A program made the translations under genes and the position numbers. Below are positions 4,437 through 60,000 of a DNA stretch of 60,000 nt, piece by piece; positions within the stretch are counted from its first letter, which is position 1, and each line of letters starts with the position of its first letter. This DNA comes from Lytechinus pictus (lineage: Eukaryota): NCBI RefSeq assembly GCF_037042905.1, contig NC_087245.1:12464001-12524000 (forward strand), read 5' to 3'. The notes under the pieces are model-generated. The model had not been told where the DNA came from, did not search any database, and saw only the letters and a program-made list of their open reading frames with translations.

Positions 4437-6654
4437 TTTTTGTCTCACCTTCATAGCAGAGTGAGACTATAGGCGCTGCTTTTCCGACAGCGGTGGCAGC
4501 GTCAACACCAAATCTTAACCTAAGGTTAAGTTTTGAAATGACAGCATAACTTAGAAAGTATTTGGACCTAGTTCATGAAACTTGGCCATAAGGTTAATCA
4601 AGTATTACTGAACATCCTGCCCGAGTTTCTTGTCACATGACCAAGGTCAAAGGTCATTTAGTGTCAATGAACTTAGACCATGTGGGGGGAATCAACATTA
4701 AAATCTTAACCTAAGGTTAAGTTTTTAAAATGTCATCATAACTTAAAAAATATATGGACCTATAGTTCATGAAACTTGGGCATAAGGTTTATCAAGTATT
4801 ATTATAGAATGGATGGGAAAATCCCTGCAATCTGATTGGTTGAGAGCAATGCAAGAATTTTTACTGGGCTGCATGAACGATATCCCGATAATCAAAACGA
4901 TATCCACTGTAAACAAGCTATCGTCCGAAAAGGTCATTGTGATGTCATCGCGCATGTACTGTTACGCTTGTTTACGTCAAAATTTTGAATTTTCGATCAA
5001 GGCAGAATGAATCAAATAAAGGATGCAAAATGATCTGTAAGTACAAATACGTTACCGTAATTGTCATAGGGATTAAAAATGCCTGCATACTCGTTAGTTG
5101 AGAAGTCCAGACATACGATCTAACGTTTATAGATCTACTGGCACTGCCCTGGGCTGGCTGTGCACAGCCAAATCTCCAGTGCGGGCCCAGGCAGCCGTAG
5201 GCACTGGCCACCGGAGCGGCCCGGGCATACACACACAGCTATGGCTGCCTCATAGATCTAGTCAATGCAAAGCTGTATCTGGCATCTTGGGTATAATGAT
5301 GCCTTTGTGCCAACATATTATCAAGTTAGGCATACATATTTATGTTTTCCAGGGTTATCAAAGGGTCTGCATTACATTTTGGAATTTTCATGCATCCGGT
5401 AAAAAATCATGCGTCCAGTAAAAAAAATCATGCGTCCAGTAAATATTTTCATGCGTCCAGTAAATTGAATTTACTGGACGCATGAAATTATCATGCATCC
5501 GGTAAATCATTAATTTTTGTGGTTTATTCAATAAAATTTTTCCATTCTATAAAACAGATGATGCATGGGTTTCTTTCGTGGGTCAGTGGAACTGTGTGCA
5601 CGCGGTAACTTTGGCATTATGGTCTAAACCCACTCGGCTGCGCCTCGTGGGTTAAACCATGCCAAAGTTACCTTGTGCACACAGTTCCTACTGACCCACT
5701 CTAACCCATGCATCATTTGTATACTGAACATCCTGCATTAGTTTCACGTTACATGACCAAGGTCAAAAGGTCATTTGGGGTCAATGAACTTTGGCCAAAT
5801 TGGGGGTATTTGTTGAATTATGATAACTTTGAAAGTATTTTTGTCTAGTTCATAAAACTTGGACTTACATGTATGAGTAATCAAGTATCACTGAACATCC
5901 TGTGCGCATTTCAGGTCACATGACCAAGGTCAAAGGTCAATAAACTTTGGCCATATAGGGTATCTGTTGAATTACCATCATAACTTTGAAAGTTTATGGA
6001 TCTGATTCATGAAACTTGGCCATAAGAGTAATCAAGTATCTTTGAACCTCCCTTCCGAGTTTCAGGTCACATGACCAAGGTCAAAGGTCATTTAAGGCCA
6101 ATGAACTTTGGCCATGTTGGGGGTATTTGTTGAATTACCATCATATCTCTGTAAGTGTATTGGTCTAGTTCATAAAACGTGGACATAAGAGTAACCAAGT
6201 ACCACTGAACATCTTGTGTGAGTTTCAGATCACATGACCAAGGTCTAAGGTCAATGGATTTTGGCCATGTTTGGGGGTATTTGTTGAGTTACCATCATAA
6301 CTCTGTTGTATATTGGTCTAGTTCATAAAACTTGGACATAAGAGTCATCAAGTATCACTGAACATCTCATTTGAGTTTCAGGTCACATGACCAAAGTCAA
6401 AGGTCATTTAAAGTCATTGAACTTTGGCCATTTTAGAGATAATTATTAGATTGCTGTCATAACTTTCAAAGTTTATAGATATAGTGTATAAAATGTGGAT
6501 ATAGGGTAATCAAGTATCACTGACAAGTTATAGGTCACATTATCAACGTCAAATGTCAATGAACGTAGTATTTTATCATCATATGAATGGTGTTTTTTGT
6601 GAATAATTATTTTATACTAGTTTTCAAAGTCAGCACTGCTGCTATATTATATCG
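4437..6654 (+). mobile_element. Helentron/DINE-like element with internal ~120-bp tandem repeats, 3' end lost
   Basis: Begins TTTTTGTCTCACC..GTGAGAC (short subterminal hairpin), then repeated units containing CACATGACCAAGGTCAAAGGTCA..GAACTTTGGCC. The superfamily call is inferred from architecture. Confidence 0.6.
4802..5723. mobile_element. Two-hairpin insertion element (Crypton-like, inferred)
   Basis: Interrupts host unit ATCAAGTATTA|CTGAACATCCTG. Inverted repeat TTATAGAATGGA/TCCATTCTATAA is followed by a ~170-bp terminal hairpin (5553-5723) with loop TCGGCTGCGCCTC. Confidence 0.6.
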
Positions 6655-7368
6655 CGGCTGTTTTCCGCCGTAGAGCAAATGTGACCGAAGTACATGTATA
6701 AGCAACCTGTTTTCAGGCCTTGGAAATTAGAAAACACCCAAAACAATTGGGCTTTATTGATGATTCTCGACTCTCAAGTCTGGGGTATATGATGGTGATG
6801 ATTGTTGATGATGATGTTTAAGATGATGATGATACATGTATACATGCACATTTATCATATATCAAGATACATGTAGTTTTCTGAACAGGTTGCAGGTGAG
6901 AGACTCTTCATATAATGTAGTTCTGTGCACTTGTAGAGCAAACAAGGCCATGCTTGTTACTCAATCCAGTGACTATTGTTGGATCCTTATTTTCAATTCC
7001 AATTCCCCTGGGGGCAGCAAGCCATGTCATCAGTTGCTATGGAAATCAAGATATCGTGTGATGGGTGACTGCATTTGTATCCTAGCAACCAAATTCCAAC
7101 CACTCAATCCGCCTTCCCCAAATGATCAGTTCAAGTCTGGCTTGCAAATAGATCTCCATCTCTCTCTTAATATTTTTCTTCAATCTTTCTTGCATTGGTT
7201 GCCTGTTGCCTCCATGCTCTTTACCATGCCCTTATTGATTACGTTACGCACTATTAACATTAGAAATCTGTACAGTATTGCATTTATGATAGCCTGTGGT
7301 AACATTCATGTTTTTGAGAGAAAAAAAACCCCAAATGTTTCTACCTGTATGGGAAGGGTCTGTGCTGG

Positions 7369-7506
7369 CTGCACAGAAACATTGTTAGCCTAACAGAGCG
7401 CTATTACAGTAAGCCCGGTCACATCTTTCGGATTGTATCGCTGGACATTACTGGTTGTAGCAGGGTGTCTATACCGCATTGTTAGCGCTAAGAACGTTTC
7501 TGTGCA
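7369..7506. mobile_element. Small MITE / inverted repeat
   Basis: TGCACAGAAACATTGTTAGC ... GCTAAGAACGTTTCTGTGCA. Confidence 0.55.
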
Positions 7507-7871
7507 TTCAGTACTGGTCAGTTATGTGAATTTTTCTCAAACTCTTCTAACATTCCAAATTTCCAATATTGTAAAAACTGTCAAGTGGTCATTGGATGTT
7601 CTTTAGCCGCTAGAAGTAGAATTCATATGTAAATAGCACCCTCATCAGGTAATGATTACATGTATATTTAAAAATAGCTATGTGATTACAAAAATGTACA
7701 TTGCCCATTTAAGTTACAAATTTAGTAATTGGATATTAGAAAACAAACCACAGACAATGAGACAAAGATTTCTTCTGTTAATGTTATTTCCGCCCACTCT
7801 GTATGCTTAAGATTAAGAAGAGGTTTTATTTTATGTCCTGCACATCATAACTGTTTTAGGCCATGCACATT

Positions 7872-8723
7872 AGGTGGTTTCAAACTGCCTCGATCACAAG
7901 AATCCCCGTTAAATTACGAGAACATTTACATGCTCAAAAATACCAGATAATTATTTTTGCATTCAGACCGCCCCGAAACACACTCTTTGGGGAAATTTCT
8001 CAAAGTTATGAGCATGCGCAGTACTGTCTGGTAGCAGACGAAGAAGCGCGCGCTTTTAGCGGTACGGCCGGGGAGGGAAATCCACCTGCGGCCGGCCTAG
8101 CTCTAGCACGTACAAACTACGCTTGATCGTATGCTCAAATCATTTGTTCCCTTGATCATTTGCAATTGCACTAGATTTCTCTCCACATTGAAATTAAGGC
8201 CTTGGTGGCCTCCTCACTCCAGTGCGATGTCATCTGGTATGAAAATTTAGAATACCGGTAAATATCACCCTTAATTCGTAAAACTATCTTTTTAAGAAGA
8301 AGAATCAACCGCCTAGTCAAAGTCGAACCCCGAGTCACGTCGCATGAAAAGTGTACGTATGTTTATCGCTGCATGCACGTACTGGCGCTTGCTTGCTCGC
8401 TCGGTAGGCCTCGCATCAGCTAGCCTCGCATATCGAACAGCGCGGGCTATGAACCGGAAATTCACTTATCGCGGTGATCGATGGGATACAAGTTCTCGTA
8501 GTTTGCTTTCAGATTGCCAAAATACCCACGACCTTGGAAAAATCCCCGCGAAAGTTCTCATAATTTCGCCAAGTACCTACTATTTAGCGGTATTTTCTTT
8601 CGGGGATATTACGCGTAGTTTGCTTTCACATTACCAAAATACCTGGTATTTTCTGATCGGGGTAAATTTCCCGATCAGAGAATACCTGGAACTGACGAAC
8701 TTCGAGGCGATCTGAAACCACCT
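7872..8723. mobile_element. Harbinger-like non-autonomous DNA transposon
   Basis: TIRs AGGTGGTTTCAAACTGCCTCGA / TCGAGGCGATCTGAAACCACCT; 3-bp TSD ATT (7869-7871, 8724-8726). Confidence 0.7.
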
Positions 8724-10831
8724 ATTTATTAATGAAATACACTGTAGAGTATTGTGCATTTTTGGTGGATTCACCAACATGAAAGTGGCTGATAATAAAA
8801 GTTTCATAACTACAATAATTGGAAGCACAAACTTAAATAAAAAGAGTTCTGACTCTGAGCTATAATTGAGTTCTTCTTCACATTCTCACTCATTCTTCTA
8901 CACGTACATGTACATGTATGTGTAGTTTGAGAGCCTCCATCAAACTGCGCCCCAGAGTTGTTCTAGATTGAAATTACACTAAAAATGAGATTGATCTCAG
9001 ATCTTATTTGTTTATATTACACAATTTAAGATCAATCTCAGTTTGAGTTTGTTTATTTCGACCAGCATATGATGCATAGCCATCATTCATTACCCCATCT
9101 CACAAAAAAACATAGTTGGCATTCCTCAAGAGAGGGGGGTCAGCAAATGATTGACCTCTATATTTTCACCCAAGGATTTGATTATTGTTGTAGAGAGCAT
9201 GTATTCAATTCATACATGTACATGTACGTAGGCCTGTAACAGTAATGGTAAACCTCTTTTGAACTTGAGGGAGACTTCTTTAATACCACATTTGAATAGT
9301 GGGCTGTATGTACATGTACATGAATATTTTGATACCTAATGATCTGCATGTCAGCCAACATGTAGATTGCCTTTTATGTCTTAAGTTTGTTTAATTATGA
9401 AAAGCATAAAAAGGAAAAGATAATTGATGCATTTGGTGTTCAGGGAATAATTGACCTGCTGTATAACTTTTCGAGTTGCATAATTAGTGCTTCATTGAAT
9501 GCCTTGATTTCGTGTGGCAGGTTTTAGGGCTGTATAGACGACCTACATTACAACCTTGTTGAAATCTTGTAAAAACCAAAACCAAACCTGCCTAATCAAA
9601 TTTGATCTAATTGAAATTATTCTTTGGCATATCGCACCCTCCCTGGGTATTTTCTTTATTTTTGTTTAAAAATTATACTTGAAGAACTTACTTTACAAAT
9701 TTTATTTTAAAATAAGCTACAGATAAAGATTATGTCCTGAAATTTTCAACCCATTCCATATTTTAGAAGGGGATATTTACAAACTTGACAAAAATAGGCA
9801 GATATTTGAACAGGCTCCAGATCAAAATACATCAATATTTTTTATAAAATCGCGCTAAATCAGTGATCTATCCAACAAATCATGTTCTTATCGTTACATC
9901 ATAAGCCTAATTGTTTTATAGAGCATACACATCATATTTGAATACAGGCCTATAATCTAGAAATAACTTGGAATAGTGACATGGTGTTTTTTTTTTTTGG
10001 GGGGGGGGATTAACCAATGCAAAAGATGCAGGTACATGTAGGATTTTAAAAAATCACAATGTACATGTATGCATTATGCAGCAGCTTCTTCATCCATTCA
10101 TACATTACATGAAGACATGCACATTGTTTTTATTCAGTGAGAATGGGGATTAACTCTGCACATTTACATGTAGGCCTACACGAATTGTTGATTATGGAAA
10201 GAAGGGAATTTTTGTTTACTACATGAACTCCCATTTTGAAGCCACATTCTCCAGCTTGAATTTGAAAAACTTTGATTCTTGCATGAAAAATGATCTTGAA
10301 TACAACTTTAGTCAGTGAATAGCGACTTAGCCAGATACCCAGCTAGAATGAACATCAGTGTGTGAGCTGAGAATTCTAAGCGTGGAACTAAAGAATTCTT
10401 CCAGCCTTTGGTGACGGAAATTGACACTCGCCCACAGTTTTGTAAAGGTCACAGAATAATCAGGAGCAGTGCTCATTCTAAATATCAAGTTCCCAACATA
10501 TCCCAAAGAATGTACATGTACACACTACCTGGACTGTACTTTTTAACCTTTTTTCAAACTTTAAATGTAGGCCCAATATAACTTTGGCATTTTTGAAAGC
10601 CTGTATACACAAGAAAGTACACAAACAATGCTTACAGAACATGGGCCTGTCTACAATGTACAGTTAACTGAGTTCCTTGTTATAAATCAAGGAGATTTCT
10701 TCTTTAGAAAGATGAAAATATTCATTTTGAGCATTTTAGATCCTTTTTTATGTTTTTTTTAAGGAAGAATGTTAGGATAAAATGCAGCATAATATAGTTA
10801 ATTTCTGATCCAAAACTACAGCATACATGTA

Positions 10832-12794
10832 CAGGGTGCTACATAACTTTTTTGAAGCACTTGCCCAGTTGGGCAAGTAAATTTTCAAATAATTGGAAAA
10901 TACTTGCCTGAATATAGATTTCACTTGCCCGAAAAAATCCTTCAAAACAAAGTTTTATTGCTTCAAAACAAATATAGCAAGCCTTACGGTTTTACATACC
11001 ATACCATTGACGGCTTTATTAATACATTTTTCAACATGACTACTGATGTACCTTGTAGTTTTACTTTTTTTTATTGATTTTTATCTTGAACATCATGACA
11101 AAATATATGGTCAATATGCTCTTTATTTCCTAATCTCATATATTTTCCATATATTTTGGAGGGGACTAGGACACACAATAAAAAAGGGGAAATCACTGAA
11201 AATAACCAGAGAAAAAAAATTAAGAGAGGGGGAGAGAATGAAAGAAAAAAATAAGAAAGACAGAAAGGAGGAAGAAACAATGAGAGAAAGGCTGCGGGGA
11301 AGAGAAAGAAAGAAAGAAAGAGAGAGATAGAGAAAGGCTGAGGGGAAGAGAAAGAAAGACAGAAGGGAAAGAAGGAAGGAAAGAAAAAAAAAACTGAGGG
11401 GAAGAGAAAAGAAGGAACAAAGAAAAAAAGAAAGAAAAAAGGTAAAAAGAAAGAAAGGAAGAAAGAAAAGAGAAAAAGAAAAGGTAAAGGATGGATGGAA
11501 GGAAGGAAAAGAAAAAAAACAAGAGAAAGGAAAGAAGGGAAGAAAGGAAGAAAAGGTATAAGGATAGATGGAAGGAAGGAAAAAAAGAAAGAAACGAAAG
11601 ACAGAAAGAAATGAAGGAAGGCAGAAAGAAAAAATATCGAAGAAAAGAAAGGATGGATGGAAAAAAGAAAGAACGAAAGACAGAAATAAAGAAAATCAGA
11701 AAGAAAGAAAGGAAGGAAGGAGAATGAAAGACAAATAGAAAGGAAGGAATGAAGGAAAGAAATAAAGAAAAGAAAAAATGAAAGGGATGAAGAAAGTAAG
11801 GAAGAAAAGGTTAAGAATGGATGGACGGAAGGAAAGGTTAAGAATGGATGGACGGAAGGAAGACATTAAGAAAGAATGAAAGTAAGGGGAAAAAGAAGGA
11901 AGGATTATTAAAGAAAGAGGTAAACAAAGGTTGGATGGAAGGAAGAAAGAAGAAAAGAATGACAAAAAGAAAGACAGCTATAGTAACAGAAAAAATGAAC
12001 AAAAGGAAGGAAATTTAAAGAAAAGAGAGATTCAAAAGAAGGAAAGATTGAAAAGAAAAGAAGGAAAGATAGGCAGAAAGAAGGGAAATAGAGAGGAAGA
12101 AAGCTCAAACTATCCAGTCATAAATAGAGAAGAAAATTTATCAATTTCCTTGGCTAAAAAAAATAGTTACGAAAGAAAACACGTTTATCAACATACACAC
12201 TGCATATGTTGGACTGTCAAACAATGTATTTCAGTGCGTGTGATACAGACGATCATTCGAAACCCGATCTTTTTTAAGCATAAAGAAGTGAAAATTTCTC
12301 CTTTTGCACTTACAAATGACAGAGCTACCCCAATTTTTAGGAAATATGGACATAACAAGAATTTTCAGTGGTAAGAAATGTGAATTTTGACAGTTCTGTG
12401 GGAGATTTCTTCCAGATCAAACTTTGTTCGTGCAGCACCGTACTCCATAGAAACTTCACTACATGCATCGGCTGCGTGGACGAGGCGCTACATGTAGGTA
12501 TGCTAGACTGCCATTGATTCTGTGTGTGTGTGTGTACGTCTCTGAGCTGTGTTTATTGCAGAAAATGGCGCAAATTTTGCAATTCGAATCATGACTTAAA
12601 GTTTTTTAAAGAAGAAATTAATGATATGGCTTTTTTTGTCTCTTTTTCTTTTCTATATTTTGATGCTGAAATATGGGGAATCTTTCTGAAATATATTACG
12701 AGAATTTTGCTTGCCCGATTCGGGCAATCAGTTTTTGTTTTTGCTTCAAAACACTTGCCCCGGGCAATCGGGCAAGCGCTTATGTCGCACCCTG
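10832..12794. mobile_element. hAT-like non-autonomous element carrying a ~900-bp GA-rich tract
   Basis: TIRs CAGGGTGCTACATAA / TTATGTCGCACCCTG, subterminal CTTGCCC/GGGCAA repeats; CATGTA on both flanks. Confidence 0.75.
11210..12105. repeat. GA-rich low-complexity tract (GAAA/GGAA)
   Basis: Almost pure purine sequence; source of several spurious ORFs. Confidence 0.9.
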
Positions 12795-14900
12795 CATGTA
12801 CATGTACTGTATTTTGTTATTAAATCATTGTTTCCCAATTGACTTGAGGCAATTTTCCCCCAACAGAATATCACCTACATTTTATTTTTAATGTCAAGAC
12901 ATGTAAGTGAACATGATAAAATTATATGTATACAGTTGTTGGCTTGAGGAATGATTTAAATGTTTTCCTGTTTTTCCCTTTTAAAACAAATTGCGATGTC
13001 AACAAGTGTAACGCTACGATCAATCCAGAAATGTACCGTTTAAATGTTTAATATAGAAAATCAGTTTGCTGTTCGTATGATGAAGAGTACTAGAAAGCAT
13101 GTATATGTAAAAAAAGTTTACTACTTGTATTACCAATGAATTCATAGTGAACGTACATAACAACTCCTAGATTCAAACATTAACATTTTTAATCTGCTAT
13201 AGACTATACAACATAGGGCCTACATGTTTAAAAATCGATCTTGTAATTTTGTATGAATTCAATTTAATAGATGAGTTGTAAATTTGCAGGCAATTGAAAA
13301 AATGAGCATATCAACAAGTATATTGCAGTTTTTGCACTAACTCAAAATATCTAAACAATTTTGTATGAGGAACATTGCCATATATCAGCATTGAAAACAA
13401 ACTTCAATAATAAACTACATGTACATGTACTCGTTCATTGTTGAGTCTCTTATTAGATTGTATCAGGGTCTGAGTATCAAGACTAAGCAGTGCCTGTCAG
13501 ACATCCAAATATTTTCATTTAGACTCATTCATGCTTGACCTACATTAGCAGGATCTAATTTAGAGCAGACATAATTAAGCCTCAGAGTAAATAGTTGTGT
13601 TGGCCCATACATTTCATGGACTTCTGATTCTCAGTTTTATGGTGCCCTGGATTGCTGCAGATAACCGCCAGGGTCAAAGATGTATTTTTATTGATCAATG
13701 ACCTCATTTTAATGGAATAAAATCTAGAATGTTAAAATGCTTGTCAATAATAGCCGTGGAGCCTTGTCTACATGTATGTCTGGAGGAAGAAATAATTTAA
13801 TTTCTACCTCCATGGTGTATGGATCTATGCAACATACATGTACATGTATGAATCCACCCCCCCCCCCTCCTTCAACTAAACAGGATGGGGATGGTGGGGA
13901 GGATTTGCAACAAGTAAAGGTCATAGGTTGAATGAAATATGACAAAATGAGTCATGCATACGCTGCAGGCCTACACTGTAAATGCCAACATGACTGAAAA
14001 AATAGTAGACTCGACAAGGGAGCAAAACAACTGGGGATAGAAGAGGGGCTTGCCCCCCCCCTCAGGTTGAGATCTTTACAAATTTGAAATTGATGTATGT
14101 TTTCTCATCTTTCATGTCTCAATTCAATGTGAGTATAATCTGAAAACAATAAGAAAACAACTAATTATTAGAAGCATTATCATAGAAATGTTGGTTTACC
14201 ATACATGTAGTTACTATTGAAATGAAAATTCAAAATCTATCAGGAGCAGTATTCCTAGGTATTCTCCATTATTCATATACCACCAAAAATTGGTAGAGTT
14301 AGCAACAACATGTAGGCCCTACATGTATATACTTATATTTATTGGGGTATGGTTTTTTTTTTTTTTTTGGGGGGGGGGATGGGCAGATTAACCTAGTTCC
14401 TGTTGATATATGCCCAGGTGGTTCACAAGACCAAAAATCTCCATTTCTTGTTTCCTCTGTTATGCTGTGTATTCTCTTTAAAGCCTATGAAATACAATGT
14501 AAGCCTTATTTTTCTTATAGAAAAAATAAAGGAGATATTAGGAAAACTTGAGTCTAATAGACCTTCATTACCTTAAACTTCACATATCGGTATTAGAATA
14601 AAAATACATTTATAAAGTACTGTATGTATGCTGGCAATGTACATGCACACACGATTTTATGATATTGCAGTCTTTTCACTTGCCATCTCGATTCTACACC
14701 TACATGTACATAATGTAGGCACTTCACAGCATGCGTACACCATACCATTGAGAGAAAGGCAGTGCATCTCACTGGCATTCATGCTAATGATATTACTGGC
14801 ATGATGCGTATTTCCAGGCGAGAATCCTCAAACAATTAACGGGTGCCCCATGAGGACGGGTCGTGAGCAGGAAGCTGAGATGCGCAGACACACCAGCATC

Positions 14901-16052: not shown

Positions 16053-16162
16053 CATAGACAGGCATTGAAATAATCTTGTGAAAATAGATGATGGCATGAA
16101 AATTGACCAGTCCATAGTGCTCTGTGAGCACAATACAAGTACCGGTACATGTGTATTCCTGA

Positions 16163-21124: not shown

Positions 21125-21339
21125 TTCCTTCAGCAAGAAATTTATCCACACTGTGCTGCACTCAACCCAGGTGAGGTAAATGGGTACCAGCAGGAAATAA
21201 TTCCTCAGAAAGCTGTGTGCACCTGAATCGGTAGCCTAGCTTAGCCAGGTAATAATAATAGCAGGGCCCACTGGGAGAACTGTTTTCGGAAATGAAGTGG
21301 CTACCCTGGGTAAATATACCGTTGTTATTATTATTATTA
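21125..21339 (+). mobile_element. 5'-truncated SINE (shared core, (TTA)n tail)
   Basis: Core TTCCTTCAGCAAGAAA..TGCTGCACTCAACCCAGGTGAGGTAAATGGGTACC shared with 33427-33649; ends in (TTA)n. Confidence 0.75.
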
Positions 21340-46553: not shown

Positions 46554-46706
46554 TACCTCGGTCACATTTGCTCTACGGCGGCCGTACGAAAACAGACTTT
46601 TTAACATTTTTTGTAATAGCTACATATAGGTGGTTTGAATAAAAATTGAATAAAACGGCTGTTTTTTACTTGCCGTATGGCCGCTTTAGAGCAAATGTGA
46701 CTGAGG
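46554..46706. mobile_element. Palindromic MITE (intact copy of the family split at 4373)
   Basis: CCTCGGTCACATTTGCTCTACGGCGGCCGTACG / CGTATGGCCGCTTTAGAGCAAATGTGACTGAGG. Confidence 0.75.
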
Positions 46707-48649: not shown

Positions 48650-48948
48650 GGAAGAGCCTTTTAATCAGAGGGTTGTGTATTCAAATCCCACCGCAGCCTA
48701 GCGTCCTTTGGCATTGTCCACACTTTGCCACTCTCCACCAAGGTGCTGAATGGATACCTGGTAGGATGTGAAAGTCATTTTAGCTTGTCCCAAATCGTTA
48801 GCACCTTATATGGCGAATGGCCAGGGAGTGGAGGATGTGCTTACATTGTGTGCGAGAATGACTGATTGAATAAATCGCTATTAGCGCTTAGAAACGTATA
48901 ATGTATGTATTTTAATAACGCATTATTGATAAGATTATAATTATTATT
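48650..48948 (+). mobile_element. Degenerate tRNA-derived SINE
   Basis: B-box-like GTATTCAAATCCC, core CACTCTCCACCAAGGTGCTGAATGGATACC, (TTA)n-like tail. Confidence 0.55.
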
Positions 48949-49631
48949 ATACTTCAAGTGACCTGTTGTTCTAGAACAAAGCATTTGACATCCTCAGAAG
49001 TGTTCAGAATATAAAAAAATACTGAATGCCATAGAAATCATAATTGGACATAATATCTAATTCAAAATATACTCTTTACTTAGCAAGTTTCAGGAAGAAA
49101 AAAAATAATTGAAGTGGAATTCGAACATGATAACGAGGTCATATTTTGATATATAAGTATTTGATAAAGAAGGAACAAATTGTTAATACAAGTAATCACT
49201 AATTATGCGATAAATTGCACATCCGATTTCAGAATATAACCAGACATTCATCAGTATTATAAAAAACAAAATATATGATACACATTTCTTTAAATTTGAG
49301 CTGCGACAACATCTACCAAATCAATTTCCTTTTTTGAAAGCAATAGCTAGAGTAAAGGCATTATCATATACAAATTGATATACAAATATACACTAACTGA
49401 AAGCTCCAACAATAATACATTGTATGTTCAGGATGATGACGTATTTACCCCCCCCCCCCCCATGTATAACCATCCTTGATGAAAACAGGTGAATAAAATG
49501 TTCTAGCATTGTCATAAAGCAACATAATGGTTAAATCCTATGAGAAACTGTACAAGGAAATAGACAATGCAATCAATTTCAAATCATACTTGCCAATGGA
49601 AAGTGCAATTTTGATTTGCTTTAGAGGCATT

Positions 49632-50440
49632 TTACCATACAATGGCAGTTACCATACAATAGTAGTTACCATACATTGAAAGTTACCATACAATGTTAGA
49701 TATCATACATTGATAGTTACCATACAATGGTAGTTACCATACAATGGTAGTTACCATACAATGGTAGTTACCATACAATGGTAGTTACCATACAATGGTA
49801 GATATCATACAATGGTAGATATCATACATTGATAGTTACCATACAACGGTAGTTACCATACAATGGTAGTTCCCATGCATTTGTAGCTACCATACAATGG
49901 TAGTTATTATATCCTACGTAAATTAAATCATGTATGCTAATTGGTTTAAATAACATCATGTGACCAAACATATTCTCACTATTTTGCAATGACATTGAAA
50001 GTGAAACGCCCACTGAAGAAAAATTACTATTCGATGATGTCAATGATGGAATAGTGCACTATTCTATCATTGACACAGATCGCGCAATTTCTCGGGTGCA
50101 GGCACAAATACGCATTCCGCTGAGCACGTAGCTTCAGAAAAAGTAGGTCAGTCTGCACAGCGCGTTATCTATAAGATGAACTACGTGTACAAGAACTATA
50201 GATTATCAAGATTGGTTGCTGTAACTTATTGAATGTAGGATATAAAACAAATATACCAGGCCTTTATTTTGAAAGTATTGAGGGAATTATTCATCCTTGG
50301 TTGTACTAGCAAAATTACTGTTTTAATAGTAATGCCAGTCCAACCTTGGTTGAATAATTCCCGCTATACTTACTCAAAGCCTGGTATATTTGTATACTAT
50401 AGAATGGAAGTTACCATACATTGATAGTTACCAGAAAATG
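49632..50440. repeat. 17-bp minisatellite (TTACCATACAATGGTAG)n interrupted by an insertion
   Basis: About 16 units at 49632-49906, resuming at 50397. Confidence 0.9.
49907..50396. mobile_element. Two-hairpin insertion element (Crypton-like, inferred)
   Basis: TTATATCCTAC/GTAGGATATAA inverted repeat, then terminal hairpin ACAAATATACCAGGC..GCCTGGTATATTTGT; interrupts the 17-bp array at AGTTA|CTATA. Confidence 0.6.
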
Positions 50441-51215
50441 ATAATTTGTTTAGTAACCATTAATGGAACATTTATCATTTAAGATAAAGTTGAGTTTGAA
50501 TCCTGCGAATAACAAAGTAGTTAGGAAAGCTCCATGCCGTATAAAGCATGTGAGATTATTAAGTTTATTGACTTCCTATAAAAAAAAGTCATTACCCTGC
50601 ACAATAAACAGATATATGGGATCACACACAAATCTTGTATGAATGACTGACAGCCAAAATAAAATCATACATTTTATCACACATCAAATCTGAGGGCATT
50701 TAAATCTAAATATTTGTAGCATGAAGCAATAATATGTGTAAATCTCCCAAATCAAGGTAATTATTATCACACCATTATGGATAAAAGATCTACTGTCAAA
50801 AGTTCTGACATATTTATGTTAACCAAACATTGTAATAAAAAACAGAATATCAAACAGAGATGAGCACATGAAAGCACAAGTAATATTATTCCTTGGACAA
50901 AAAAAACCTGTCTACTCTCATAATGCCAAGCTTATTTATTTTAAAATTACTGAGCAATTACCATTTCATTTACCAGAATCATTAGACAGATTATTTTATA
51001 CAAACGAACACTTCGGTGGTCAATAGTTGGATTCTGTAAGACTTCACAATTGTGACCGGTATCATAGACGGAATTTAGGTTTAAATAGCAATATTTTGCA
51101 GTTGACATCTTAACACTGCCATTCTTCCTATATAACATGAGATGTGTGTGAGCTCAAAATTTATTTTCCCCTTTTTCTGCTCATGAAATGCTAAATCAAT
51201 GGAACCCTGGATATA

Positions 51216-51495
51216 AATTCCTTCAGCAAGAAATCTATCTACACTGTGCTACATCCAACACAGGTGAGGTAAATGGGGATCTGGACCCTGTTGCATAAAA
51301 GTATCTTTGCTATCCAATGGTAACTACCATGGTAATGATGATCAACAGCCAATAAAAATCAATGATTCCATGCAAGTTATCATTGGATGGCAAAGTTACC
51401 ATAATGGTAACTTTTATGCAATGGGCCCCTGGTAGGAATTTATTCCTTGAAACGCGGAGCGTACAGCAACAGCTCTGTTAAAGCAAGGGTAATCA
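51216..51495 (+). mobile_element. SINE core interrupted by a MITE (about 51283-51428)
   Basis: Core TTCCTTCAGCAAGAAA..CAGGTGAGGTAAATGGG resumes as CTGGTAGGAATT after an element with TIRs TTGCATAAAAGT / ACTTTTATGCAA. Confidence 0.65.
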
Positions 51496-51581
51496 TGCTC
51501 CATTTTTCTAGGGCAAATAGAAGTTTTTGATATAAGCAGTTATGATCATATATGTTTGATCACAGATGGTAGAGTTGGTTA

Positions 51582-51712
51582 TCATACTTTGTGCTCATCT
51601 TTCTGTGATGTTGATGACATAACCCCTTCCTTGTTTGGCTGGGTATCCCCTTGGTTTGGACGTCCATCTACTAAGAGAATACTGGCATGGAGAAGAAGTG
51701 ACCGCTCTGCAT
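51582..51712 (-). CDS. LETMD1: LETMD1-like, last coding exon
   Basis: Acceptor TACATAG|AT; encodes DAERSLLLHASILL..KV*, matching the SLLLH C-terminal motif of LETMD1. Confidence 0.85.
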
Positions 51713-51847
51713 CTATGTAGATTGGAGAATCAAATAACGAACGCAAGGATTCTATGAGATTTGAGGAATTAGCCAATCAAATACAAGGATTCTACAAGAA
51801 ATGAGCCATTAGCCAATCAAACGCAAGGTTTGTATGAAAAATCAATC

Positions 51848-52728
51848 TTAAGGACATTCCCTAGTTTATGTTTGTGCACATCATGATCTGCACATATTTT
51901 ACGTGACATCACAATGGATGAACAGGTGATTATCAGCTATAGGTATCAGCAGATCCAATGTTTTATTTTGTAAAACTAAGTACGGTAGATGAAAATGCTC
52001 CATGGACCAATGTTTCTTTTAATACCACTACAATTTCTGAATACTTTACTGTAAAGTGCTGCAAGGTGTGACAAATAGAGGTCAAGTTCGAATAAATGGT
52101 AGAGTGGTTTGATAGATGCAAAGCCTTTGGCGCATTTTGTTGTTTAAAATAGCATACTTGCTCCTACAAAAGTACTGATAGTTTGAAAAGAAGCACATGG
52201 GCCTATTTTAATGTTTACACCACTTGAGTACACCTTCCTTAACAAGCTTGCAAATTTTGGTGAAAATGTCATGGATTTAAATAAAGTGCAGCATTTATTG
52301 TACTTCTCATATTTGTTATAGAAATTTCAACTTTTTGAGATAATGTTTTTGTTTCCTTTCACACCATTTGAAAGAAAAGAAGGTGCTGCTAACCTTAAAA
52401 GGGCAAATGAATAGCAATATGAATGAATTCTCAATTTCAGCATACATTTCTGAACTATACTATAAAATTTGATGAAATTTTACATGAATTCTGACTTAGT
52501 AATAAGGGTTGACTGCAACATAGTGATCTCGTGGGGTCTGAAAATGCCAAATTCTTATGAATGCGCAAATCTCAATAACTTCCAATTTGGTGAACTTCAA
52601 ACCTCAATAAAAAAAAATCAAGCACATGAACCTAGGGTATTTTTTGCATACTAGTATTTGAAATATTCAAGTGTTTAAAATTGTGTGAAAATGACATGGA
52701 TTTCATTTAAACTGTGGAACGTCCTTAA
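51848..52728. mobile_element. Kolobok-like non-autonomous element (third family)
   Basis: TTAA-GGACATTCCCTAGTTT ... AAACTGTGGAACGTCC-TTAA. Confidence 0.7.
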
Positions 52729-53150
52729 GCCAATCAAATGGCACAATTTCTGCAGCTAGTAACTTCCTATTGATAACAATAGCAATATAGGTTCCTACAG
52801 AGTTCGGGATAAAGGTTGCCATTACAAAGGTATCTCTGCCTTAGTCAAATCTCTCAGGACCTCAAAAATTATTTGATCAAGAATAAATTTCACTTAGTAG
52901 ATGTTAATAACACACTTTGCATAATCAAGGGACCGTTTCATGAAAGTTATCAGCACTGGCAGGTTGTCATTACCAAACAGTTACCATAGTAACAGTCAGA
53001 AACCTATGCAACGTTGTTAGATTTTACAATTTGTCAGACGACAAATGTTATGTATATTTCTCTAGTCTGACTTTGACTTTTTACATATGGGGAGAGTTCT
53101 GCAAGATAAATGTAATCTATTTTACTTTATTGATAATAGTGTCTATTTAC

Positions 53151-53247
53151 CTGATATATTTGTTGATATATGAGTCCATTCTGTCAGCCATTCTGTTAGC
53201 ATCTGTCTGTCTAATCCTACAGGGTTTAATCCTCTCTGATAGCAAAG
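53151..53247 (-). CDS. LETMD1: LETMD1-like coding exon
   Basis: TTAG| LCYQRGLNPVGLDRQMLTEWLTEWTHISTNIS |GTAAAT; CY.RGLN..W..W motif of the LETM1 domain. Confidence 0.9.
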
Positions 53248-53311
53248 CTAAGATGCAAACCACACAAAATGATATGATGTACAATCAATATGGTGTACTG
53301 GGATAACAATT

Positions 53312-53472
53312 AGAAGAAAAAAACAGGGAAATAGATGGCTGGAAGGAATTACTAAAGAAACTGGAAAATCTTTGAGAACCTAGTACGCTTTCACAGGATA
53401 GAACAGCATGGAGAAAGTTTGTCCTTGGGGTCACCAGGAGTCACAAACGACTCAATGGCACTCAACATCAAC
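53312..53472 (+). mobile_element. 3' end of an RTE-clade LINE
   Basis: Frameshifted translation RWLEGITKETGKSL..QDRTAWRKFVLGVTRSHKRL is typical of RTE/BovB C-termini; GGGGTCACCAGGAGTC..ACGACT tail motif. Confidence 0.7.
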
Positions 53473-53611
53473 CAAATAGAAATTAGAAGACTTATGAAAT
53501 TATCTAGAATTTCCGCTATTGTACATTGAAGAAAAGGAAAAATCTCTGACCCTGTGGTATAAATAATTTAAAAATAACGCTCTATAGGACATCAAGTCAT
53601 TAATATCTCAC

Positions 53612-53767
53612 CTTCCTCAGATCATATTCATCAATACTATGTATACCAGCTTTGAGTATGGCCTGATCCATTGCTATCATAAGGCTTGCATGAGTTGAGA
53701 GTCGTTTCCTAAGGGAAGGGCTAGCTGCCAAGAACACCCACTGGGAATGAAGCTTGCATAGATTTTT
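53612..53767 (-). CDS. LETMD1: LETMD1-like coding exon
   Basis: TTTCAG| KNLCKLHSQWVFLAASPSLRKRLSTHASLMIAMDQAILKAGIHSIDEYDLRK |GTGAGA; 156 nt, phase 0-0. Confidence 0.9.
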
Positions 53768-53897
53768 CTGAAAAACAAGGAAAATACACCAAATTACAAT
53801 TTTACCACAACGTAAATTGACAGCTATGGGAAAGAAATGAATAAATGAATAAACAGAGCTTCTAAACTGGTAGACCAAAGATTTCTTTGGTTGGCCA

Positions 53898-53973
53898 TTT
53901 CCTAAGGGACGGGCTAGCTGCCAAGAACACCCATTGAGAATGAAGCTTGCATAGATATTTCTGAAACACAAGG
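53898..53973 (-). repeat. Tandem duplicate of the acceptor plus first 63 nt of exon 53612-53767
   Basis: Near-identical to 53705-53780. Confidence 0.9.
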
Positions 53974-54330
53974 CTGTGAGGTCAGTCAAACATATTATGG
54001 GAATGAAAAATTCTACAGGAGAAGAAATTATATATATCTAATATTTTATATGACTCATCATGGGATGGATTCAACCATTGAATATATCAAATAGGCACAA
54101 TCAATTTCACATCATTATCGATGCAATTTAATCAAATTAGAAATCAGAATATTCTTTTCTGAATTTGGGGTCAGAGTGAATGTTATTTTTAAATGAGTAC
54201 CTCATAATTTACTTCCTATTTACTTCCTTTTTTCTCATTAAGATTCTACAAGTTGAGCATCAGAAATAAATAGGAATAGCGCTTGTCCAAAAAAGGTAAA
54301 TGAAAACCAAAGTAGCCGTTTTGGTTAAAA

Positions 54331-55117
54331 TAGTGCTGTTATCGCTAGTCCTGTCGATAATCGCATGTTTTTGCCACTTAGCAATTATCGATAACCTTTC
54401 TCTTGTTGTCAATAATACTCGCTATTATGTAATACAGTAAAGTTCCTCCGCATTCGCACATATACATGGGGAAACCCCACCTCAAATGGCCAGTAATAAC
54501 GGTCTAATTGCTTCAGCTGTTAGCGATGTTGTTGCAATGAGGCTGTCTCGCACACCACAGAAGTTTCATACGTTGATGAACTCGACGGCAATGATTGGTT
54601 ATTCCAAGGAGTTACCAGCACTAACTTATTCATTGGGCTGCGCTGGATACAACCAATCAATGACAGCTCTGGATGTTCACGAGCGCGTGCACGAGGGCTG
54701 GCCTCTGCAACCCGGGTAGATTTGGGAATCATAAATATTAATTCATTACCACAACAAGAGATTTAGTAAACAACATGGTGACTTTACAGCCTCACAGATT
54801 AATTTCTTTCATTTAGTTTGTTTGGGTGTTATTCGTTTCGTCATGTTCGTAACTTCAGGAAAGTAAACAAGTTCGACTGACACTGACAATGCACAATCTG
54901 TGTCACCAGCTATGCTATGTTGGCGTCGCCCAAGCCTAGCCTAAAGCTATGGTACCAACGTGGACGGGATGCAGCCTTGCCCAAACTGCCATGGCGCATT
55001 CAATTTTACCTCGAACCGGCCTACTAATAAAATGTTCTTTTGTTGATAGTTGTAGATATCGGTAATATATTTTTACTGATATATCGACAGAGAATTTTCT
55101 TACCGATAACAGCACTA
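54331..55117. mobile_element. hAT-like non-autonomous element
   Basis: TIRs TAGTGCTGTTATCG / CGATAACAGCACTA; perfect 8-bp TSD GGTTAAAA. Confidence 0.85.
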
Positions 55118-55426
55118 GGTTAAAAAAAAGTTGGGCAGCCTGGTTTTTAAAGAAAGAATCTGACAAGGAGTGTCATAAATAATAATAATAATTGGCATTC
55201 ATATAGCGCCATCTATCTAGAAATATTCTATTCCGAGGCGCACAAGAATAGAAAGAATTAGAAAGTTTAGATGAGTGTCAAAGTGCCAATAACTAATACT
55301 GTTAAAAAAGATAAGACTTCAGTTTAGATTTGAAGGTCTCCAGTGATGGTATAATTCTTAAATAAGCTTTCTATTTCTTGAAATAGTCATTGATAATTCT
55401 TGACATGATCTTGGTTATATACTAAC

Positions 55427-55522
55427 CAAATAATTTCTTGAGAGTGACTTGAGAGATGTCTGTTGACTAAACAGAGGCTGAAAAGACAGAAGCTCAGATG
55501 CACTCAAAGGTTGCTTCTCCAT
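55427..55522 (-). CDS. LETMD1: LETMD1-like coding exon
   Basis: TTTTATAG| MEKQPLSASELLSFQPLFSQQTSLKSLSRNYL |GTTAGT; 96 nt, phase 0-0. Confidence 0.85.
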
Positions 55523-56059
55523 CTATAAAATAGAACGTTCAAGAGAAAAAAATAATTACAATTCTACAGGATTTATAAACAAGTTAATAGACTGATGATT
55601 TTTCCTTAATGAACAAAAAGATAAAGCTATATTACATCTACAGTAAAACCGAAAATAAAAATAATTCTTATTTTTGCAACAGTTTGATAGCTATTGTTTG
55701 ATGTGTATATATAGTGGATTCATCCACTAACATGAATTTGAAATATATTTTAATGAATGAGGATTGATGGCAAAGAAAACAATGTACTGATAGGTATATT
55801 ATAAAGTAAATCTAAATATATGTAAAGTATAATCATGTTGAGTTGATGAAAATTCTCCTCACTCAACCCAGTCAAAGTCAGCCATACGAGATTGTTGTAA
55901 GTAGTTGGAATTCAACAGCAACTTCAATCACATTATCCTGATCTGGCTAGATGGCAAAATTGAGCTCATAATATCAATAATGCACAAGAGGCCTTTCAAC
56001 ACAGAAAAAATGGGAAATTATATCAGCTGCTAAATTGTCAGTGATATAATACTGACTAC

Positions 56060-56252
56060 CTGATTTCCAGCTATTCTATGATGTAAAGATTCAGAAAGTT
56101 CAGATGTGGGTTTCTTCTTTAGTCTTTTATCAAGTCTCTTGAGTATTAATGGATAGAGTCGACGTCTCTTCTTGCTGTTTTCCTGGTGGTTGCTAGATAC
56201 ATCTTCTTGGGTTATAAAGTGGTCTGATAAAAAGATCCTCTGGAAATATAAT
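56060..56252 (-). CDS. LETMD1: LETMD1-like coding exon
   Basis: TGCAG| (V)LYFQRIFLSDHFITQED..RRRLYPLILKRLDK..AGNQ |GTAGTC; resembles the YLFPRQLL..HFWT region of LETMD1. Confidence 0.85.
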
Positions 56253-56874
56253 CTGCATTGGAAGAAGAAAGAAACGGCAATTCAAGAAAGCAAACATCAA
56301 TTAACCTATATACAGTATTGCAACTGTTACATTTTCAAGGGCATGTTAATACCAGAATTTAGTTTTGAGGTACAGTTGGAGTCAATTATTTACATTCACC
56401 AGGGAAACACCCCCTCCCTCATCATATAATCTAGTTAGGCCTAGGTCTTTCTGGTATTTTGTCTTCAGGTACCCGTAGTAATTTTCGGGTGGGTACCCGG
56501 GTACCCGAAAATCATGTCGCATGAAATATGACTGGTGGAAAAACCCCATAGGTGACGTCATCCAGCCACTGCGCCGCAAGCCAATTTATGAATGAAAATA
56601 AAGTAAGCAGTGCAAGCCTCCCGTGCATGCCCCACGCGCAGTATTCCATCGAAACAAGTCTGTATTTTTTTTTATACTCTGTCACCTCGTACCAAAATCG
56701 ACCTAGAATTCCACTTTCCTTTATTTAATATGAATTGTGAAAGGTATTCTCGGAGGATCTGTTTTCTCACCGATACCACACAGGTAAACAAATTTTGATT
56801 ACTTCTTGCTTTTGCAAATGTAAGGATCATAAGGTAACTTAAGAAAAGCATGATCCACATTTAGCCACAGGAAG

Positions 56875-56960
56875 CCCTATCACGGTGTAATAGTTCTGAC
56901 ATGCATCTCTTTAATCAGAGGACATGGGTTCAAAATCCTACTCCAGGCATTAATTTCATT
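56875..56960 (+). mobile_element. tRNA-like SINE head fragment
   Basis: A-box-like GGTGTAATAGTTCTG and B-box-like GGGTTCAAAATCC followed by GGCATTAATTTC, similar to the 33427 SINE head. Confidence 0.4.
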
Positions 56961-57135
56961 ATCTTTTACCTTTCAATTCTACAATTGCTGCACAGAAAAT
57001 ACGGGATGATAGAAGCCACTGTGAAATTCTGCAAGTAGCAGAGCAAAGGATACAATTATTGTCAAGGTATCCATTATGCAACACTTTAATAGTGTTATTC
57101 TAGATATTTTTGCTGCAGATTAAACTATTACTTAC

Positions 57136-57218
57136 ACAACTGGTAAAGTGACATAGTACACAAAGGGTATGTTGACTATAACCAGCACCGGGAGAACCTT
57201 AGCGACATCCTGTTTCAT
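57136..57218 (-). CDS. LETMD1: LETMD1-like coding exon (transmembrane segment)
   Basis: CTCAG| MKQDVAKVLPVLVIVNIPFVYYVTLPV |GTAAGT; LETM1-type D..K..P....IPF hydrophobic helix. Confidence 0.9.
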
Positions 57219-57604
57219 CTGAGGTATCAAAAAAAGATAGTGAAACAAATATAATCAATCAAATACATACAGAAAATAACATTTGTCTACAAAATAAGTC
57301 AGATAATTTTAACTATATTTAGGTATTTTAAGTTGATTATCCTCTATAAATATTATATTATTCCTGCTCTTTCAACCTCTCTCACTATCTCTGTATTTAT
57401 ATCATATCTATTGTTATCTTTGTCTCCCCCTCCTTCCTCCTCTCTCCCTTTCTCTTGCTGTCTCTCTATCCCTCTTGCTCTCTCTCTCTATCTCTCTGAT
57501 TTCCCCTTTTCTGTTTATGTACTATATAATCAATTTGTTATTTACAAGCTGTTTATTTACCATACAATTTCCCATTTGTAATATTTACTGATGGTAATAC
57601 TGAC

Positions 57605-57720
57605 CTGCATCTTCTTGTAGAGATCTTTCCATTCAAGGTCTTCCAGTTTCACTTCCTTATTCTTCAGTCTCTTGTTCAGGGAATACACAAAGCGGAAGTC
57701 TTGAACAAAATCTGTTGCAC
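57605..57720 (-). CDS. LETMD1: LETMD1-like coding exon
   Basis: GAAG| GATDFVQDFRFVYSLNKRLKNKEVKLEDLEWKDLYKKMQ |GTCAGT; phase 1-0. Confidence 0.85.
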
Positions 57721-58327
57721 CTTCAAAGCAAAGTTTTAATTCAATATTGAACAAAAAATAAGAATGAAAAAAAAATAGCATCCTATTTTATTCATCACTT
57801 CAAGGATTTGATATACAACTATTAAACACAAAGTTGCATGAGAGTTCACTTCCCAGACAATTCATGACTCTAGATAATTTCTGAAGACAAAACCTTCCGG
57901 ACTCGCACAATACATCATTACATAAACATTCTGCCTATATTTTCAGAGCAAGTAAATAAACACAAGATGGTAAATCTTCTTTTTTTAATTGGTACTTCTA
58001 GTAAAGGGATAGATCTTTATTTAAACAATCTAATGAATTTTAAATTCTAGATTTTAGAAATTAGATATGATCTCCGACTATACCAAATAATATTCAAAAT
58101 TATCAAATAAGATTTTCATTTAATTGAATCTAACTAAAGATTAGAAACTGAATCATTTCATGGGTGGGTAAAAATTCATTATGGCTGTGTTTCTTGAAAC
58201 CATCACAGGTCTTCCTGAACAATCAACAGATACAGTATTTCCAACATAAACTTGCATTTTAATTAACCTAATGATGGTCTCATGAAACATGTCTTCAGTA
58301 AAGATTGAGAAAAACTGAAGCACAAAC

Positions 58328-58542
58328 CATCTACAAATCGTTCATAGAAGACACGGGCCTTGGGAGAGACCTTGTTTAGAAACCAGATAGTGCCATGGTG
58401 CATCTTTAATGCTATGACTTTGATGATCCCTGCTTTTGGCTTCTCTTCATCTCCCTTGCCTTGTTGATCTCCATCTGATTTAAGGCTAGATGATGGAGTA
58501 CTGATAGTCCGGCATGAAGCAGTCAGTCGCCTGTACTTGATG
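58328..58542 (-). CDS. LETMD1: LETMD1-like coding exon (N-terminal region)
   Basis: CAATAG| IKYRRLTASCRTIST..WFLNKVSPKARVFYERFVD |GTTTGT; open 215 nt, in phase with the next exon; Arg/Ser/Thr-rich start resembles a mitochondrial presequence. Confidence 0.8.
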
Positions 58543-58819
58543 CTATTGATTGAATGAAAAAAAATGAAAATATTGCTTGTAAACTACTATATTCCACTCC
58601 TAGTACCAATGAGGTCCGAACATTACATGTATGGACCTCATAGGCAACATAAGTGATAAAACCGGTTAGACGTTGCCGTTTCTATTTGCACCCAAGGACT
58701 TTGGCAAATGCACGCCTTAATACAAATTGGATGGTAAACATTTTGGTATGAATTAGTTCTTAACATCATAAATAATCTTTTACAATGTTTAAAGGTAATG
58801 GATCGAGGTTAAACTTACA

Positions 58820-59209
58820 TTTTCAGTCTTTTTTCTTGAATTCTTGGTGAGCGTTCCAAACGCTGTGAGGACTGATCAACTCCGATGTGATTCACGTACT
58901 GGTCAGCTGATCGGTCAGGTGATCGGTTGGTTATCTTTTTGTCAGACGTTCATAATTTATATTATAATATATCACAGAACAAAGAATTGATAAATGTCCA
59001 TATAGACCCCCGAGATAAGATTTATAAACCACTTCAATGAATATAACATCTCTGTTATGCCCCTGCACAGACTCGTCTACATTGATTTCGATATTTAAGC
59101 GTCATTATAAAATTATAACAAAATGAACGCCTTGATTAAAGGCCATAAAGCCTAGAGACTCGCGAGCGTCATGTGACAACTCGCCCTGGATTTGCATGTA
59201 CAGGATCCT
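58820..59209. promoter_or_regulatory. Candidate bidirectional promoter region
   Basis: CpG-richer interval between a minus-strand donor (AAAT|GTAAGT at 58819/58818) and a plus-strand ATG exon at 59210. Confidence 0.4.
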
Positions 59210-59282
59210 ATGGCGACAACAGCCGCGCAAGAGTTGGCCAGAAGAGGCGATGAAATCACAAAATTTGGAAAGAAAAGAACCG
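59210..59282 (+). CDS. Probable first coding exon of an unidentified divergent gene (MATTAAQELARRGDEITKFGKKRT)
   Basis: ATGGCG start context, open frame, strong donor CG|GTGAGT; no downstream exon recognised in the window. Confidence 0.55.
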
Positions 59283-59619
59283 GTGAGTACCCATTTTACA
59301 TTATAATTAGGAAATTAATAAGATTATAATGAATAAGTTAGACCTAAATTTAGGCCGTAATTTATATGAATGGGCTGGAAATTCAAGGCCAAAACGTACC
59401 TGTCTGGCGTCGCCTTTTCCAACACGCATTGGAATAGCGGTGTCGCCCCAGAGTGCTATATTCCACTGTAAAGATGAGCTGATCACCAAGCTGTTTTAAA
59501 GTTATGCATGTTTTGAAGGACATGAATATTGAGAGTTTTCAACAGAGGTCTGGTCCAATACCAAGAAACAATGATTTTTAGAAAAATGATATTGAACAAA
59601 TTTAAACCAAGCAAATCAA

Positions 59620-59690
59620 TAACAGAAATGTAGATTCTAGATTCTAGACTATCTTAGATAGTCTAGAATCTAGAATCTACATTTCTGTTA
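59620..59690. repeat. Perfect palindrome, 35-bp arms with 1-nt spacer
   Basis: TAACAGAAATGTAGATTCTAGATTCTAGACTATCT-T-AGATAGTCTAGAATCTAGAATCTACATTTCTGTTA. Confidence 0.95.
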
Positions 59691-60000
59691 ATTGATACCT
59701 AGGCCTACTAGATAGTATCTAGTAGGTACCATATTGCTTAATAAAAGCAAATTTCATTCATTTAATACTATTCAATATCTGCATTAGATCGCATCAGATC
59801 GATCCACTCACACTAGTGAGAGGTTAATATTAGTATTTTTTAAAAGATCGACCAAGACAGTCTACACTCCCTACAGAGTAATTACACAGCACAAAATTCA
59901 AGGTATGGGACTGGATTACAAATCGGGTCTACTATAAAGAGTAATGATACATACTTAGACCAGTAAGACTGCCGTTTCAATGAAGATTCAATATGACAAA

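Follow-up and report, generated by a model that had tools for sequence, protein, structure and literature searches.

A uniform TA-anchored palindrome over the CSRNP gene of the sea urchin Lytechinus pictus, a probable scar of transposon excision

It is difficult to quantify the excision of DNA transposons, which is thought either to be effaced in germ lines through homologous repair or to cause damage of an irregular kind. Among elements that insert at TA, Minos leaves a 6-base footprint, that is, a net gain of six bases at TA, with four bases from one end of the element, in the form of two non-palindromic words. Here, we describe a stretch of 60000 bases of Lytechinus pictus (contig NC_087245.1, positions 12,464,001 to 12,524,000; hereafter the window), which carries a CSRNP gene and whose non-coding DNA is rich in the octamer TACATGTA (TA-CA-TG-TA). 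We propose that this octamer is here, probably for the most part, a heritable scar of cut-and-paste elements of the IS630-Tc1-mariner type. The transposases of Tc1/mariner elements cut 2 or 3 bases within the element (10.1101/659086, PMC2170065), and TACATGTA itself is recorded as a rare Tc1 footprint (PMC3520976); the usual scar of Tc1 and Tc3 in worms is a gain of four bases (73-78%; PMC12632400, PMC13148408, 10.1101/659086). General background only was drawn from PMC5521727, PMC7913693 and PMC11361634. A preliminary description of this DNA had presented TA-CA-TG-TA as an expected product of Tc1/mariner excision. The word is indeed on record for Tc1, but since it is rare there and +4 is the usual product, a uniform +6 needs a separate explanation.

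Excess of one word and its distribution over the CSRNP gene

Expected word counts were obtained from order-1 and order-2 Markov models (given in this order below), for the whole window unless stated otherwise. TACATGTA occurs 66 times, against 1.6/4.1 expected, and is the second most frequent 8-mer of the window, exceeded only by A8. The 66 copies collapse to 57 clusters, comprising 48 single copies and nine doublets, with no triplet. Moreover, CATG accounts for 66 of the 99 words of the form TA-XY-X'Y'-TA, and three of the 16 such words lie above expectation, namely CATG, CCGG (TACCGGTA, 5 vs 0.2/0.3) and GGCC (TAGGCCTA, 4 vs 0.5/0.4). The excess of such octamers predicted in the preliminary description therefore holds for these three and fails for CTAG, whose word TACTAGTA shows no excess in the window (2 vs 0.7/0.8). 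All of the words reported there were recovered in place, together with a further TACCGGTA at 33514. Several classes had been overlooked, all of them in excess over 2-35.6 kb: TACAGTA/TACTGTA (18 vs 3.6/6.6), TACGTA (8 vs 2.2/3.0), TACCGTA/TACGGTA (4 vs 1.0/1.3) and TAGGGCCTA/TAGGCCCTA (3 vs 0.1). TACTCTA was counted 8 times, with 2.9/3.8 expected. No Minos-like non-palindromic pair is prominent among the 136 TA-NNNN-TA words. One-mismatch neighbours of TACATGTA number 65 (20/34 expected), with a mean age corresponding to ~6-8% divergence.

Contigs from four of the 14 listed sequencing runs were compared with the window over 25300-33100. Of the 27 octamers in this interval, 25 are covered by contigs of run X11 and 24 by those of run X12, with at most 2 letters missing, and on this evidence the excess of TACATGTA is not an assembly artefact. 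As both runs come from one study and are near-identical to the window, they show presence and not fixation.

The long reading frame at 35.8-38.4 kb matches PF16019 by Pfam and is 100% identical to LOC129257540, a CSRNP of Lytechinus pictus. Using tblastn with the CSRNP protein, the coding exons were placed on the plus strand at 23723..24050 (first, end approximate), 29073..29219 (second) and 35773..38383 (last, carrying PF16019). Across the 125 TA of these three exons, TACATGTA does not occur once. By contrast with the four remaining copies (42001, 42256, 42281 and 58624, within 42001..58631), 62 copies in 53 clusters (44 single, nine doublets) form a field over 2086..34871, at ~2.4 clusters per kb of non-repeat DNA. 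Thus, 53 of the 57 clusters lie 5' of 35.7 kb, ahead of the last CSRNP exon (p 1e-8 vs TA counts, for a boundary set post hoc), and 42.4-60 kb shows no excess, with one octamer and 15 one-mismatch neighbours (12/16 expected). The word had been said to recur throughout the introns. This holds for the 25 clusters found between coding exons; another 28 lie upstream of the first coding exon, in DNA of presumed intron status, and only four of the 57 beyond 38.4 kb. A CpG-rich stretch at 1-1000 of the window suggests that 2-23.6 kb may be 5' intron of CSRNP.

Per TA, clusters are six-fold fewer in recognisable repeats (4/871, 0.46%) than outside them (49/1733, 2.8%; p 1e-5), as expected if scars accumulate with time. 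The concentration over the gene fits both the targeting of a transcribed gene and a younger age of the downstream DNA, of whose 1522 TA 276 lie in repeats that are recognisable without a repeat library. CpG is depleted window-wide, and its observed/expected ratio is equal in and out of the dense region (0.45 vs 0.47). CpG depletion fails to account for the regional pattern (rho -0.12, p 0.36 in 60 bins; -0.31, p 0.08 within the gene).

Two side observations concern the 5' end of the window. At 760-800, near the presumed promoter and far 5' of the annotated CSRNP start, an ATG stands in sequence that resembles a strong vertebrate start site; it is a possible upstream frame or alternative first exon. 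A dense run of TACGTA/TACGGTA at 60-120, immediately 5' of the CpG-rich stretch, may consist of nested scars of a CG/CC class.

Insertion at TA, target-like flanks and probable re-use

The window was compared with itself (159 alignments, 28008 columns, five tandem arrays excluded). This comparison covers four of the 66 octamers, and three of these four are 6-base gaps; four of the six well-flanked rows with a 6-base gap derive from the same three events, at 5866, 25744 and 32995. Five sites had been called demonstrable insertions. A clean 6-base difference at TA was confirmed at these three, with its direction at the first and the last. At 5866..5873, the gain affects a single unit of a tandem repeat with a period of ~160 bases (earlier given the putative label Helentron-like), and the six bases are missing from 5/5 homologous sibling units, which points to an insertion; two flanking substitutions are required in either register. 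At 32995..33002, a single member of a TTAA-flanked family of miniature elements with a very high copy number (putatively labelled Kolobok) has six bases more than the aligned arms. They are left out in 31, 28, 64 and 55 repeat-family contigs of the four runs, at 38-57% of depth, and insertion is again indicated. At 25744..25751, one arm of the inverted-repeat element 25649-26058 is six bases longer than its partner. A net insertion with a duplicated TA, the mark of a footprint, is thus seen at 5866 and 32995 with direction and at 25744 without, and was not obtained at 25408.

Several details of these comparisons count against insertion by a transposon. The site at 25744 has a single inverted partner, which leaves its direction open, and its row is absent among the 12 of 255 contig gap rows listed, which come mostly from high-copy repeats and not from unique sites. 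At 25408..25421, where TACTAGTA is joined to TACATGTA, a 12-base gap appeared in 0/5 gap settings; to the right, ~40 bases could not be aligned, and the lengths differ by +10 overall. TAGGCCTA at 59700..59707, a gain of six in one arm of a 13-base hairpin, also has a single partner and no direction; it is flanked by CCTA repeats, so that a slippage deletion in the other arm is equally compatible. The gain at 32995 is also readable as a tandem duplication of the adjoining 6-mer plus one transition. TACCGGTA at 33514..33521 arose by substitution in a dispersed repeat (vs sibling 21124-21254) and is not a scar, which makes the minor words a mixed set.

The sites at 32995 and 59700, the latter in a hairpin between CCTA repeats, are those that best suit another explanation, in which slippage or templated end-joining, including fold-back copying, makes and multiplies TACATG units without a transposon. 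The CA/TG-rich flanks of the octamers agree with it, and the doublets (9/57 clusters) could be produced in this way. However, the siblings of 5866 and 25744 hold no CATG or similar 6-mer that could serve as template; 48 of the 57 clusters are single and none is triple, which is not the pattern of a microsatellite; and templated inserts should vary with the flank, yet CATG makes up two thirds of the palindromic words (66/99). We consider this explanation unlikely.

To characterise the flanks, each cluster was collapsed to one TA, giving 57 clusters vs 2348 other TA and 114 vs 4696 half-flanks. Scar flanks are enriched in G at +2 (0.33 vs 0.16 in the background, p 1e-5), T at +3 (0.47 vs 0.33, p 0.001) and G at +4 (0.26 vs 0.17, p 0.01), and depleted in A at +1 (0.16 vs 0.32). 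The bias is seen on the left and right sides separately, and survives the removal of the 27 of 114 half-sites that resemble older scars (Tc1 half-site match p 4e-4). The Tc1 target consensus is CAYATATRTG (PMC9635669), and the flanks match it at +2 to +4, in line with a palindromic target preference. Moreover, the inner half of the scar (C, A, T, G) fits three of the four biased positions, so re-use of scars is predicted.

Such re-use is what the compound words suggest. Doublets number nine, with 1.45 expected, and 0/20000 simulations reach this count. Of 18 GG/CC/CT words, seven share a TA with CATG (p 6e-6, for a word list drawn up post hoc). At 10165..10178, TACATGTA shares a TA with TAGGCCTA; at 14313..14327, TAGGCCCTA has CATG on both sides; and TACCGGTA is followed by CATG at 16140..16151 and 31667..31678. 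These mixed compounds make slippage insufficient, though it could make the doublets. The earlier proposal that old footprints are targeted again is therefore supported, by the doublet excess as well as by GG and CC words nested on CATG. At 60-150 bases, no significant clustering of scars was found; gaps below 60 bases are 8/52 vs 5.0 expected (p 0.12).

In a related organism, organism A, 8 pieces of run X1 show 5.9% substitutions relative to the window. Gap arithmetic was applied to 26 of the 32 listed pieces, six being omitted as repeats or likely paralogues. In the piece 28357-28694, which holds one octamer, exactly 6 letters are missing in organism A; pieces holding 4 and 7 octamers lack 42 and 40 letters, and four pieces without any listed scar word lack 0-3. 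Other pieces do not suit a simple picture of scar gain: the piece over 28782 is short by only 3 letters, those over 25414, possibly paralogous, by only 4, and an X3 piece with three octamers by 6. Two X3 pieces without a counted octamer are short by 16 and 22; one of them includes the TACCGGTA compound at 31667, and one ends within the 32503 octamer. By this arithmetic, which is not a site-by-site alignment, some scars appear to be common to organism A and some not, and this mix agrees with the age given by the one-mismatch neighbours.

Some further observations touch the repeats used here. TTAA-flanked miniature copies lie at 22377-22947, 29477-29976, 32848-33412 and 35103-35643, and in 4/4 runs their depth exceeds that of unique DNA roughly ten-thousand-fold. 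At 25845, the copies of element 25649-26058 in organism A mostly have 5 more letters, which indicates a small deletion in the window copy. At 59615-59731, an 82-base near-perfect hairpin is followed directly by a 36-base hairpin, both made of TCTAGA/CTAG-like words.

Proposed excision scars and the alternatives

In the proposed scheme, an element would insert at TA and duplicate it; a transposase would excise it by staggered cuts inside its ends; and end-joining, in the germ line, would leave the two outermost bases of either end enclosed by the TAs, so that six bases are added in all. CA ends with 2-base overhangs and full fill-in would give TACATGTA. Near-neutral outside exons, such scars would accumulate with the age of the DNA, beginning before the split from organism A and continuing after it. 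Each scar would offer two new TAs with a target-like inner half-site, and hits at these would yield doublets and compounds. TACAGTA/TACTGTA, TACCGGTA/TACCGTA, TAGGCCTA and their kin would probably stem from other families, with CAG, CC and GG ends. A high ratio of scars to elements would be expected if the families were active far longer than an insertion takes to be fixed. The flank bias, the doublets, the low density in repeats and the nesting speak for the Tc1/mariner footprints that the preliminary description had recognised; the reading stays an inference, as no source element or transposase is tied to the scars. As to the several TA-targeting families proposed there, CT ends are unsupported, and for GG and CC there are 4-5 words each, among them one that arose by substitution.

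A number of results weigh against excision scars. No transposase was found among 97 long reading frames of the window (Pfam; only CSRNP scored above the cut-off, as with nine frames), and CAT-ended inverted-repeat elements are not beyond chance (5/2119 pairs vs 11/2123 control pairs). For every candidate CA-ended element of the window there are ~60 scars, and the empty, filled and scarred states of one site were not seen together among the 12 of 255 gap rows listed, mostly from repeats. The spectrum is not that of Tc1/Tc3: over 2-35.6 kb, TACATA/TATGTA are counted 43 times (25/42 expected) and the +6 word 62 times (0.8/2.0 expected). Moreover, the flanks lack the T of Tc1 at +1 (0.34 vs 0.34) and have G, not A, at +2. 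From other systems, worm and fly germ lines mostly repair excision breaks by scarless homologous recombination (PMC13148408); the eight footprints listed for Sleeping Beauty (10.1101/659086) include TACAGTA/TACTGTA and TACGTA and do not include TACATGTA; and rice excisions are heterogeneous, with 8/94 perfect (PMC4423477).

As for sources, no CC-, CT- or CAT-ended TA-flanked element beyond chance was found in the window. A 142-base inverted-repeat element at 871..1012, flanked by TA and bounded by CAG...CTG, is a candidate non-autonomous TA-targeting element, for which a 5-base duplication fits too. Similarly, an 854-base inverted-repeat element at 7871..8724, also flanked by TA but bounded by GG...CC, is a candidate for the source type of the GG words; a 3-base ATT duplication fits too. 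A CATG-ended element at 16146-20313 was considered and lies within chance.

The ~60-fold surplus of scars over candidate elements, the uniformity of the product and the failure to find a source element in the window would all be accounted for if a transposase or domesticated nuclease acted with a short passenger, or if integration were abortive, so that a 4-base end piece was left without a full cycle; the target-like flank bias would be retained. Against this, no precedent was found in the literature searched, and the minor word classes match ordinary footprints. In a large population, a family that stayed active for a long time would presumably also turn most of its insertions into scars. 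We therefore hold a short-passenger origin to be improbable.

By analogy, TACATGTA might be a transcription-factor site under selection in the regulatory DNA of CSRNP: it is identical to the preferred Irx site and to the top Phytophthora promoter motif (PMC3520976), it is bound by PsMyb37 in Phytophthora (PMC11134190), and it is concentrated over one gene. Yet it arrives as a ready-made 6-base insertion, also within single copies of dispersed repeats; the 53 sites are spread over 33 kb without tight clustering (p 0.12); the copies decay; and gap arithmetic suggests that some are missing in organism A. Selection for a binding site thus appears very unlikely as the general cause, while a few copies may have been co-opted. 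The idea that TACATGTA derives from TACGCGTA through the deamination of CpG in a gene body carrying methylation, which two deaminations could achieve in this CpG-depleted window and which agrees with TACACGTA/TACGTGTA at 6 vs 0.9 expected, is ruled out as the main source by the 66:1 asymmetry with the equally likely mirror product TATGCATA, found once, and is further contradicted by the complete absence of TATGCGTA/TACGCATA, by a CpG ratio alike inside and outside the dense region and by its inability to add six bases.

Returning to excision scars, we tentatively suggest, as one possibility among others, why the product would be uniform. In the germ line or early embryo of the urchin, end-joining would be precise, and one CAT/CATG-ended family with self-pairing 3-4-base overhangs would generate a uniform, self-attracting TACATGTA concentrated in transcribed genes, and would be among the main causes of small intron insertions. 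The overhangs of CAT(G) ends could pair via their terminal bases only, giving a uniform +6. Under the same self-pairing rule, CCG ends would give TACCGTA plus TACCGGTA, and CAG ends TACAGTA only. As the rule predicts, +5 words exceed expectation where the ends are CAG or CCG but not where they are CAT (a post hoc observation), whereas the count of TACTCTA (8 vs 2.9/3.8) contradicts it.

Other repeats of the window are recorded here as side observations. A 4-kb element at 16163-20163, which we take to be Academ-like, has TAG...CTA inverted ends, a 3-base TGA duplication and internal 174-base tandem units; it contains no TACATGTA, and its frames gave no Pfam match. A 57-base tandem array at 14900-16044 (~20 copies, 89% matches) has a stop-free frame of 445 codons on the minus strand, and a 17-base tandem array of 16 copies at 49632-49906 switches orientation near its end, within a larger repeat. 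No Rfam matches were found in the window. A 22-base repeat word was found at 0 viral and 6 metagenome loci, where matches to the window extend over just 24-67 bases, with no alignment of the family. The doublet word occurs at at least 120 loci of the viral collection, 104 with one cluster, 14 with two and 2 with three, none of them window-like; three contig stretches of this collection (L110, L088 and L080), with 2-3 TACATGTA clusters close by, are perhaps eukaryote-derived.

Relation to known footprint systems

Abundant TACATGTA in sea urchins, or uniform footprints at genome scale, were not found in the literature searched, which covered few subscription journals and Repbase reports. The type of footprint and re-insertion into footprints are known; a single uniform footprint as a top 8-mer of animal non-coding DNA is apparently new, judging from that literature. 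If the scar origin is true, a uniform mark on ~2.8% of non-repeat TA makes past excision countable, datable and mappable, and end-joining acts heritably in this sea urchin. Searches for regulatory sequences in a model sea urchin would also face the scars as a major cause of spurious motifs. The question of how this word came to stand in oomycete promoters would be reopened. Where TACATGTA is abundant in other eukaryotes, as in the promoter motif of oomycetes, it could likewise have begun as a scar and later been taken into use as a binding site.

The closest likeness is to Tc1 and Tc3 of C. elegans, where the TA duplication encloses bases of the element ends, TACATGTA is recorded and the flank bias is like the target. 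The worm scars are mostly +4 and somatic, whereas in the urchin +6 is dominant, heritable and found at ~2 per kb; we infer that the urchin differs from worm and fly in both the product of excision and its heritability. Sleeping Beauty (10.1101/659086, PMC5224488) shares TACAGTA/TACTGTA and TACGTA, which are in excess over the gene region, but its words are a minor class here, its spectrum is not reproduced and TACATGTA dominates. The Stowaway miniature inverted-repeat transposable elements of Triticeae (PMC1925063) also left heritable intron footprints, with a new element at the TA of an older footprint; there, one locus shows varied footprints, in contrast to the dozens of identical ones per gene in the urchin. 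In rice (PMC4423477), excision likewise yields inherited small changes, although these are mostly deletions or filler DNA, with no uniform word. Finally, Motif-1/AM-20 of Phytophthora and the Irx site (PMC3520976, PMC11134190) are the identical word and very abundant. In Phytophthora, however, the word is interpreted as a promoter binding site, the footprint idea having been weighed and dismissed, whereas in the urchin it lies in introns and repeats and enters by insertion.

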